UHGV virus genome: UHGV-1563677
Length of the DNA stretch: 11,925 nt
Reading direction: 5' to 3' (one strand)
Source: a virus
The position numbers and the translations under genes are program-made. The notes under the pieces were generated by a model that saw nothing but the letters and a program-made list of their open reading frames with translations, did not search any database and had not been told where the DNA came from. This document shows, in pieces, positions 11,287 through 11,320 of this stretch. The stretch's first letter is position 1; each line of letters begins with the position of its first letter.

Positions 11287-11320
11287 AAAACCCCGCTTGC
11301 TGCCAACAAACGGGGTTTTT
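11287..11320. terminator. Bidirectional intrinsic-terminator-like hairpin between the endolysin and the micro-ORF cluster
   Basis: aaaaccccg(11287-11295), 15-nt loop with internal ttg/caa pairing, cggggtttt(11311-11319). T-runs follow on both strands (plus: tttttacttttatt; minus: gtttttatgg). Confidence 0.5.

Follow-up and report, generated by a model that had tools for sequence, protein, structure and literature searches.

What role does a hairpin play between the endolysin and the spanin genes of a prophage late operon, and in the RNA of which strand does it act? We addressed this question in the virus genome UHGV-1563677, using a stretch of 11,925 nucleotides (called the window below). The window is DNA of an E. 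coli lambdoid (lambda-like) prophage. Its positions 10200-11925 are 100% identical to chromosomal prophage DNA in several E. coli strains, and parts of this region are present in 4957 of 5426 complete E. coli genomes; in addition, 440 phage records match parts of it, many of them Stx-converting phages. In an identical copy, the annotated order on the minus strand is a class II holin, a YdfR-family protein, a lysozyme, three small hypothetical proteins and Rz/Rz1, followed by a TonB-family protein, an HNH endonuclease, the small and large subunits of the terminase, and the capsid (the holin and YdfR end of this order extends partly past the window edge). Since the annotation of the identical copy is on one strand, all late genes lie on the minus strand, to which we refer as the late strand. 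The genes on either side of the hairpin, and the small open reading frames that separate it from the spanin genes, are the following.

11410..11925, minus strand: endolysin gene (phage lysozyme of the R21 type), 3' portion with the stop codon at 11412-11410; the 5' portion is beyond the window end
11120..11254, minus strand: micro-ORF A, 44 aa from a TTG at 11254, or 31 aa from an ATG at 11215
10986..11117, minus strand: micro-ORF B, 43 aa, hydrophobic (phrog_4906, 4.5e-21; PGAP CDS WP_001280935.1)
10867..11022, minus strand: micro-ORF C, annotated with 51 aa, hydrophobic (phrog_1115, 3e-24; PGAP CDS WP_042004856.1)
10769..10855, minus strand: micro-ORF D, 28 aa (phrog_4493 and phrog_3246; PGAP CDS WP_032140280.1)
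10300..10767, minus strand: Rz i-spanin gene (Pfam Phage_lysis, 7.5e-50; phrog_13), starting 1 nt past the stop of micro-ORF D
10362-10547, embedded in Rz: Rz1, annotated in the identical copy

The endolysin assignment is supported by Pfam (Phage_lysozyme, 1.2e-23) and by phrog_7 (endolysin, 2.6e-61), and the gene is annotated as "lysozyme" in the 100% identical genomes. The four tandem micro-ORFs encode 28-51 aa with hydrophobic cores; together with Rz they are co-oriented and tightly packed, with overlaps or gaps of 11 nt at most. ORF A, which PGAP leaves unannotated, has one predicted transmembrane helix and matches phrog_6632 (1.4e-13); its homologues are annotated in one of the compared loci, L003 (45 aa), and present in the Salmonella phage SPN3UB. 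Its Shine-Dalgarno sequence, GGGAGG at 11265-11260, lies 22 nt past the hairpin and is enclosed by a small local hairpin. An in-frame TGA precedes the internal ATG of ORF A in 4 of 42 b-type copies (for the cargo types, see below). The conserved part of ORF C begins near 10983, and the matching of phrog_4493 and phrog_3246 by both C and D makes these two ORFs paralogues. The PHROGs concerned (6632, 4906, 1115, 3246, and 4493) are all families of unknown function, and searches of the micro-ORFs against Pfam and NCBIfam returned no match.

The hairpin itself, with its flanking tracts, is made up of three features.

11287..11319, minus strand: terminator-type hairpin, with a 15-bp stem and a 3-nt loop on the late-strand RNA
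11278..11290, minus strand: late-strand U-tract UUUUGUUUUUAUG (nT 4.67), the first 4 U of which also pair with the A-tract
11316..11329, plus strand: T-run TTTTTACTTTTATT (nT 4.49), the complement of the late-strand A-tract

A preliminary description of this DNA had proposed a bidirectional terminator-like stem-loop with T-runs on both strands, directly downstream of the endolysin gene and at the boundary of an AT-rich micro-ORF segment. The stem-loop and its T-runs are indeed present at this place: the arms of the inverted repeat occupy 11287-11302 and 11304-11319, and each strand has a T-run 3' of the stem, UUUUGUUUUUAUGG (late) and UUUUUACUUUUAUU (plus). The surroundings were described less exactly. 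The hairpin is downstream of the endolysin gene, but not directly so, as 90 nt separate the stop codon (11410-11412) from it; and the micro-ORF segment is only mildly AT-rich (GC content of 0.41-0.50, vs 0.51-0.59 in the endolysin gene).

The two strands differ in how well they form this structure. The late-strand RNA (11319 to 11287) reads AAAACCCCGUUUGUUGGCAGCAAGCGGGGUUUU and has 15 pairs, six of them G-C; its predicted fold has an energy of -20.0 kcal/mol (z -4.76), which none of 200 shuffled sequences equalled, and the late-strand hairpin with its flanks reaches -25 kcal/mol (z -5.0). The plus-strand RNA folds at -13.6 kcal/mol (z -2.6; equalled by 6 of 200 shuffles). It is weaker because two G.U pairs of the late-strand stem turn into C.A mismatches, while both strands pair without a flaw in the 9 bp of the lower stem. 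The d'Aubenton-Carafa discriminant, computed with ViennaRNA energies, is d = 28.2 for the late strand and a borderline 0.2 for the plus strand. The proposal of a terminator-like hairpin on the late-gene strand is thus borne out by the fold energy, the U-tract, and the discriminant, whereas of the proposed bidirectionality the T-runs on both strands hold and the plus-strand hairpin is borderline. No plus-strand gene ends at the hairpin, and promoter-like sites on the plus strand are at chance level, so that there is little sign of the second incoming transcription unit expected of a bidirectional terminator.

Taken together, the terminator-like sites of the window are about as frequent as chance would give: a consensus scan found 13 of them vs 11.4 expected. 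The hairpin at 11287-11319 is an outlier among them: it has 15 pairs, vs 5-7 at every other scanned site, and is the strongest in the window. A repeat element such as REP was also considered and rejected, the hairpin being single copy in the window. An identical hairpin is found in prophage Sp4 of E. coli O157:H7 Sakai (NC_002695.2, 1184826-1184859, where the late strand is the minus strand of the genome), and among the matches listed, the hairpin region overlaps the lysozyme gene in all but one short partial match.

We compared the hairpin in 11 annotated loci and in 114 true homologous loci, mostly from IMG/VR and otherwise from GenBank, which were retrieved with a 16-mer taken from the 90 nt that separate the hairpin from the endolysin stop. 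(With its two degenerate positions this 16-mer gave chance matches across unrelated taxa in genome contigs; viral contigs were productive.) The hairpin occurs as 19 sequence variants in 87 of the 114 loci. All 19 variants fold, the late-strand RNA is the more stable of the two in each, and the U-rich tail is retained in every one. In an alignment of 18 sequences, 91% of the cells are paired, vs 46-58% with the partners slid. Three stem pairs are altered on both sides (from U.G to A-U, G-C, and U-A), and the covariation score was equalled by only one of 500 shuffles; this covariation is modest evidence, because the sequences are closely related, and the lower stem is invariant. The strand preference is seen more directly in the wobble pairs. 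Read on the late strand, the alignment contains 31 G.U cells (at 6 stem positions) vs 4 A.C cells. A late-strand G.U is a C.A mismatch on the other strand, so that this excess indicates that pairing has been kept in the late-strand RNA. Judged from the alignment, selection acts on the late-strand RNA, not on the plus-strand RNA or on the DNA. The late strand outscores the plus strand in 10 of the 11 variants for which d was calculated. The hairpin therefore has what defines an intrinsic terminator at the level of sequence, namely a stable stem-loop, an adjacent U-tract, and pairing kept in evolution. Against a terminator, some variants have weak scores (d = -3.7 in locus L211 and -12.2 in L010).

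The genes around the hairpin suggest how a terminator could be accommodated at such a place. A 100% identical prophage copy encodes an antitermination protein (WP_000762910.1, Q-type) about 5.6 kb upstream of the holin, and in the identical copy a methyltransferase, three tRNAs, an IS200 element, and a DUF6645 gene lie in between. From the antitermination gene to the holin, this is the order usually seen between Q and the lysis genes in Stx-like lambdoid phages; in SPN3UB, Q is immediately upstream of the lysis genes. The locus therefore has the make-up of a Q-antiterminated lambdoid late operon, with Q upstream and co-oriented lysis, packaging, and head genes downstream. Between the hairpin (11287) and the start of Rz (10767), neither the consensus scan nor a relaxed scan (8 of 12 matches, with A2 and T6 required) found a promoter-like site on the late strand. 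In all three types of cargo that follow the hairpin in related genomes, the ribosome-binding site of the first ORF lies within about 20-35 nt of the U-tract. With no promoter-like site downstream and a Q gene in the prophage, we infer that the spanin, terminase, and head genes are reached via read-through. The preliminary description had reasoned that the micro-ORFs and spanins would depend on either antitermination or a promoter of their own. The Q-type gene of the identical prophage copy speaks for the former, as the way to reach the micro-ORFs, Rz/Rz1, and beyond, and the empty scan between 11287 and Rz at 8 of 12 matches makes the latter unlikely. Antiterminated read-through is the textbook design of a lambdoid late operon, so this implication is not new: the reading through of terminators by Q-modified polymerase is an established mechanism there (PMC2629481; PMC7547250).

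We consider it probable that the hairpin is a late-strand intrinsic (Rho-independent) terminator inside a Q-antiterminated late operon, insulating the genes downstream of it. That polymerase terminates here, that Q carries it past the hairpin, and that the genes downstream are insulated are inferences. In the proposed mechanism, the hairpin would halt unmodified RNA polymerase that reaches it from upstream, as in a lysogen, so that neither the four small membrane-protein genes nor Rz/Rz1 nor the genes for packaging and heads would be expressed. Once the prophage is induced, its Q-type antiterminator would modify the polymerase and let it pass; the hairpin would still form in the RNA, and may then shield the 3' end of a processed holin-endolysin message. 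Isolated phage genomes with the same arrangement exist (vB_EcoS-569R3, PhiR5_1, and SPN3UB), which suggests that the hairpin is no block to late expression. Further late-strand terminator-like hairpins occur at 6367-6350 (after the large terminase gene), 423-409, and 464-448, consistent with an operon built for a termination-resistant polymerase. The gene order makes the benefit of such insulation doubtful: holin and endolysin, the dangerous genes, sit upstream of the hairpin, and only what follows it would be insulated.

The shielding step can also be taken as the whole function. The hairpin would then be an RNA stability element that does not terminate effectively, is always passed by the polymerase, and whose stem blocks 3'-to-5' exonucleases after cleavage, so that the holin-endolysin segment outlives the RNA downstream. 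A stable intercistronic hairpin in an operon that needs read-through is what this explanation predicts, and some natural variants keep the stem despite poor terminator scores; but a stabiliser does not need the U-rich tail found in 19 of 19 variants, and the version in the window scores high as a terminator. We consider it rather unlikely that stabilisation accounts for the element, while noting that the roles of stabiliser and terminator are not exclusive.

Another explanation starts from the plus strand, on which a T-run also follows the stem. The hairpin would be a bidirectional terminator that also ends an antisense RNA of about 72 nt (from ~11254 to ~11328), which would pair with ORF A at its Shine-Dalgarno sequence and start codon, and the small hydrophobic peptides would be under control resembling that of a type I toxin-antitoxin (TA) system, as the preliminary description had also suggested. 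The relaxed scan yielded one candidate promoter for such an RNA.

11219..11247, plus strand: candidate promoter (TCGCAA, 17 nt, TAAAAT, with TG at 11239-11240; 8 of 12 matches)

Several observations fit this proposal. The candidate has an extended -10 element (TGcTAAAAT at 11239-11247), from which a transcript would start about 7 nt downstream; the a- and b-type cargos share the surrounding 20-nt block without a single difference, between flanks that have diverged, and SPN3UB retains the element as TGcTAATAT. A predicted plus-strand RNA of 79 nt folds into two hairpins (-21.9 kcal/mol, z -3.4), the plus-strand T-run is good, and the 9-bp lower stem is unaffected by the two C.A mismatches. The micro-ORFs are short and hydrophobic, and a plus-strand (anti-late) small RNA, HnrS, is known from this part of related prophages. 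However, promoter-like sites of the quality of the candidate occur 1.5 times per kb per strand in the window, which is chance density, and the 20-nt block encodes conserved residues of ORF A, so that coding constraint could account for it. In c-type cargo the hairpin is kept, and by inspection a comparable promoter is absent. The 31 G.U vs 4 A.C cells argue for selection on the late strand only, and the plus-strand discriminant is 0.2. No type I family was matched in Rfam (E up to 1), Pfam, or NCBIfam; and the micro-ORFs, unlike toxin genes that stand alone, adjoin Rz closely and lack their own promoter. Of what characterises type I TA loci, the small hydrophobic ORFs are present here, and a promoter of their own and similarity to known families are lacking. 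With one chance-level candidate promoter and no TA match in Rfam or among protein families, we regard the antisense idea as unlikely.

The sequence between the endolysin stop and the hairpin raises a question of its own, because it is conserved.

11320..11409, minus strand: 90-nt conserved untranslated stretch, A-rich at its end and invariant in its core, GGATAACACGAAATCC

This stretch was found in every locus that we compared, including the Stx phages VT1-Sakai and ArgO145, and, in a diverged form, in SPN3UB, where an extra 100 nt lie between it and the endolysin gene. Pairwise identity over its first 85 nt is 0.88-0.91 while third-codon identity of R, taken over the last 450 nt of the endolysin gene, spans 0.67-0.93; a flat value against such variable third codons makes the stretch more conserved than synonymous sites. 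Part of this conservation is inflated, since the retrieval 16-mer sits inside the stretch, and without those 16 positions the identity is about 0.85. Coding does not provide the reason: a small ORF of 24 aa from a TTG was rejected, as it is broken by a TGA in a common variant (ATAACATGAAATC), and the substitutions in the open frame of the stretch show no synonymous bias. Neither was conserved RNA structure detected, RNAalifold giving only an invariant stem of 4-5 bp and no covariation. A late-strand promoter in the stretch (ATAACA, 18 nt, CAAAAT with TG; -10 at 11342-11337) was likewise dismissed, the final T of its -10 being unconserved. The stretch may be a linker homogenised by frequent recombination, or it may be part of an RNA element.

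If the latter, the stretch and the hairpin together could form a trans-acting small RNA, either derived from the 3'UTR of the endolysin message or independently started. Such an RNA would explain why the first 85 nt are conserved beyond the synonymous sites of the adjacent gene, and why the stretch has been kept in the Salmonella phage despite the extra 100 nt that part it from the endolysin gene; an A-rich run with a terminator at the end is also the form of Hfq-binding small RNAs. On the other hand, an Rfam search of the whole window with permissive filters returned nothing at E up to 1, and in the Hfq-CRAC table of Sakai, which covers orphan peaks only and uninduced cells, the endolysin 3' ends of Sp4 (with the identical hairpin), Sp9, and Sp3 are all without an entry; the empty table at Sp4 and Sp9 counts against the terminator reading as well. 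The sole -10-like element of the stretch (11342-11337) is unconserved in other variants, there is no covarying structure, and the retrieval 16-mer inflates the conservation on which the idea draws. We find a trans-acting small RNA very unlikely. Taken more broadly, that the hairpin and its conserved flanks are a small regulatory RNA module of either kind, a plus-strand antisense RNA or a late-strand RNA derived from the 90-nt stretch, is a proposal to which we give little credence. In its antisense form, the module may cover the site at which ribosomes bind for the first small membrane peptide, up to the point where late transcription outweighs the antisense RNA. ARAGORN found no tRNA or tmRNA in the window.

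What follows the hairpin differs from genome to genome. Homology to different genomes breaks at window positions 11261, 11278, 11281, 11313, 11315, and 11324, and the cargo 3' of the hairpin comes in three micro-ORF types (a, b, and c); Sakai Sp4 has type c, and type a occurs in ST131 isolates and strain W46. In L010 both the hairpin and the cargo are different. Stx phages have a shorter, different hairpin, GGCACCGUAAUGGUGCC then UUUGUCAUUU, followed by an antirepressor (ant) gene; the scores of this ant-type hairpin (d = -0.8 and -38.8) do not exceed the threshold for a terminator, and its opposite strand lacks a T-run. By these borderline or poor scores a terminator at the R-Rz position is apparently not kept in every lineage, and they led us to tone down the idea that non-homologous terminators always occupy it. 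There is no insert in K-12 Qin, where rrrQ and rzpQ overlap, or in Sakai Sp3, where rrrD and rzpD overlap. In the window, R and Rz are 642 nt apart, and given the overlap elsewhere, this 642-nt stretch behaves as an insert in a variable slot. As far as these comparisons of sequence go, the hairpin marks a mosaic junction with phage-specific cargo behind it.

The clustering of homology breakpoints on either side of the hairpin also invites an explanation without any function at the RNA level, in which the palindrome merely persists at, or promotes, recombination between phage modules. A constraint at the DNA level would disfavour G.T and A.C equally, and this is not what the 31 G.U and 4 A.C cells of the alignment show; the compensatory changes preserve RNA pairing, and the U-tract is conserved. 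A palindrome of this kind is most improbable as the full account, and we return to the late-strand terminator.

Because such sites are expected in lambdoid phages, a terminator in a Q-antiterminated operon adds little by itself. Its value for annotation is that the hairpin flags a widely shared junction at which lambdoid prophages exchange the cargo that separates endolysin from spanin genes; the surrounding 301 bp are matched in 2114 of 5426 complete E. coli genomes. Behind it lie uncharacterised small membrane proteins (PHROGs 6632, 4906, 1115, 3246, and 4493) whose location hints at a part in lysis. Insulation by the hairpin in lysogens, if it occurs, would help to account for the silence of membrane-active late genes. 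If an RNA regulator were involved, the locus would be a new control point of lysis in very common prophages, including relatives of the Shiga-toxin phages; and if the RNA module were real, it would be an undescribed layer of control on small membrane proteins, possibly tuning lysis.

Our literature search found no paper describing this hairpin, and the element can be placed by comparison with known systems. Like E. coli bidirectional terminators, which lie between convergent genes, it has an A-tract, a hairpin, a U-tract, and a T-run for each strand. It differs from them in having no convergent plus-strand gene, in the two C.A mismatches of its plus-strand stem, and in the late-strand-only wobble of its homologues. 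With type I TA systems (hok/sok, ldr/rdl, ibs/sib, and zor/orz) it shares short hydrophobic ORFs, a ribosome-binding site in a local hairpin, and a conceivable antisense RNA; unlike those systems, the locus has four tandem ORFs packed with Rz in a late operon, with no promoter-like site of their own and no family match.

Small RNAs of the same kind of prophage offer another comparison. AgvB, AsxR, the Pas small RNAs, and HnrS are, like this element, short and terminator-bearing and located at conserved positions. AgvB, AsxR, and related short small RNAs are encoded between PR' and the holin (PMC4104026), and PasA, C, and D flank the holin-lysozyme operon upstream of the holin (bioRxiv 10.64898/2026.05.13.724894); HnrS is located after Rz, on the opposite strand. 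Identity with the published EHEC prophage small RNAs was rejected, as the EcOnc coordinates on Sakai Sp9, Sp4, and Sp3 miss the endolysin 3' end.

The insert between R and Rz resembles what is called a moron in lambdoid phages (Juhala et al., 2000, cited by PMC2629481 and PMC4104026): it is extra DNA, its content varies, and a terminator-like hairpin accompanies it. In a classic moron, the cargo is preceded by a promoter and followed by a terminator, both belonging to the moron; here there is no promoter-like site, the terminator is upstream of the cargo, and the consensus scan found no terminator-like hairpin after ORF D or Rz.

The closest likeness is to the terminators of the late operon itself. 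Lambda tR' and the later terminators of lambda, as well as the tR' of Stx phages, are likewise GC-rich late-strand hairpins with a U-tract, downstream of Q; and as at tR', all later late genes here would depend on read-through (PMC7547250). The difference is one of position and product: tR' follows the late promoter closely and gives rise to a defined short RNA (6S RNA, StxS), whereas this hairpin lies about 3.5 kb further on, in the gap between the endolysin and spanin genes. In this comparison it counts as a further instance of a familiar element, a probable intrinsic terminator at a mosaic junction of the late operon.

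In all three micro-ORF cargo types (a, b, and c) that follow the terminator hairpin in related loci, the first ORF has its ribosome-binding site within a small local hairpin directly 3′ of the terminator, located in the window and in the compared homologous loci as follows:

11255-11277, minus strand: local hairpin with the ribosome-binding site, at equivalent positions in L003, L004, L006, L007, and L009

For types b and c, the Shine-Dalgarno sequence is paired with the last part of the U-rich tail (UUUCCU or UUUCU). The arrangement suggests that translation of the first peptide is restrained. 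A further cargo type, seen in the homologous locus L010 (at about 1460-1500, late strand) and also in L190 and L208, carries TTGACA and TATAAT, both perfect, after the local hairpin; the two are spaced by only 13 nt, and the gene for a 47-aa small protein comes next.

ORF A (11120-11254, minus strand; phrog_6632) is a fourth micro-ORF, which PGAP leaves unannotated in genomes identical here. Two starts compete, TTG at 11254 and ATG at 11215, each having a separate Shine-Dalgarno sequence. In four of the 42 b-type homologues a TGA lies in frame between these starts, and this speaks for the shorter form, of 31 aa, in those copies. Micro-ORFs C and D (10769-11022, minus strand) are paralogues, both matching phrog_4493 and phrog_3246, and share the motif ALAFAIKWVAVGIAV, which has a 15-residue counterpart in the paralogue; the ORF C homologue of other prophages is 60 aa long, with a different N-terminus. 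Salmonella phage SPN3UB (L005) has two small ORFs without annotation, at about 1740-1840 and 1443-1580: a hydrophobic ORF of 24 aa (MAAAVAISGNDGWGWLIFAGIIIL) lies in the interval that separates the endolysin from the conserved stretch, and an ORF A homologue (45 aa, C-terminal IRWW) adjoins the Rz start.

Past the endolysin stop, the first 85 nt of the untranslated stretch at 11320-11409 (minus strand) are more conserved than the synonymous sites of the endolysin gene. The core of this stretch, GGATAACACGAAATCC, is invariant; it also has a variable block, which in many cases forms a short palindrome (TTGGCCAA, TGGCGCCA). No function was found for the stretch. Other terminator-like hairpins with U-tracts occur on the late strand of the window:

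6350-6367, minus strand: one hairpin, separating the large terminase gene from the gene that comes next
409-423 and 448-464, minus strand: two hairpins, close to the window's low-coordinate end

The folds of these hairpins were no better than those of shuffled sequences (z of -1.0 and -0.6).

Within the late region there is also a small anti-late unit, its gene running in the opposite direction to the late genes:

9311-9511, plus strand: YlcI/YnfO-family gene, between the HNH endonuclease and TonB-family genes

Directly past the Rz stop, the segment at 10111-10307 shares 95% identity with a segment of Sp9, a prophage of E. coli O157 Sakai, that contains the Hfq peak EcOnc12. EcOnc12 now bears the name HnrS; this Hfq-dependent sRNA of 66 nt is encoded on the anti-late strand and represses hha (PMC13502914). 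Given this identity, the window probably carries a copy of hnrS, with the predicted sRNA at about 10140-10230 on the plus strand.
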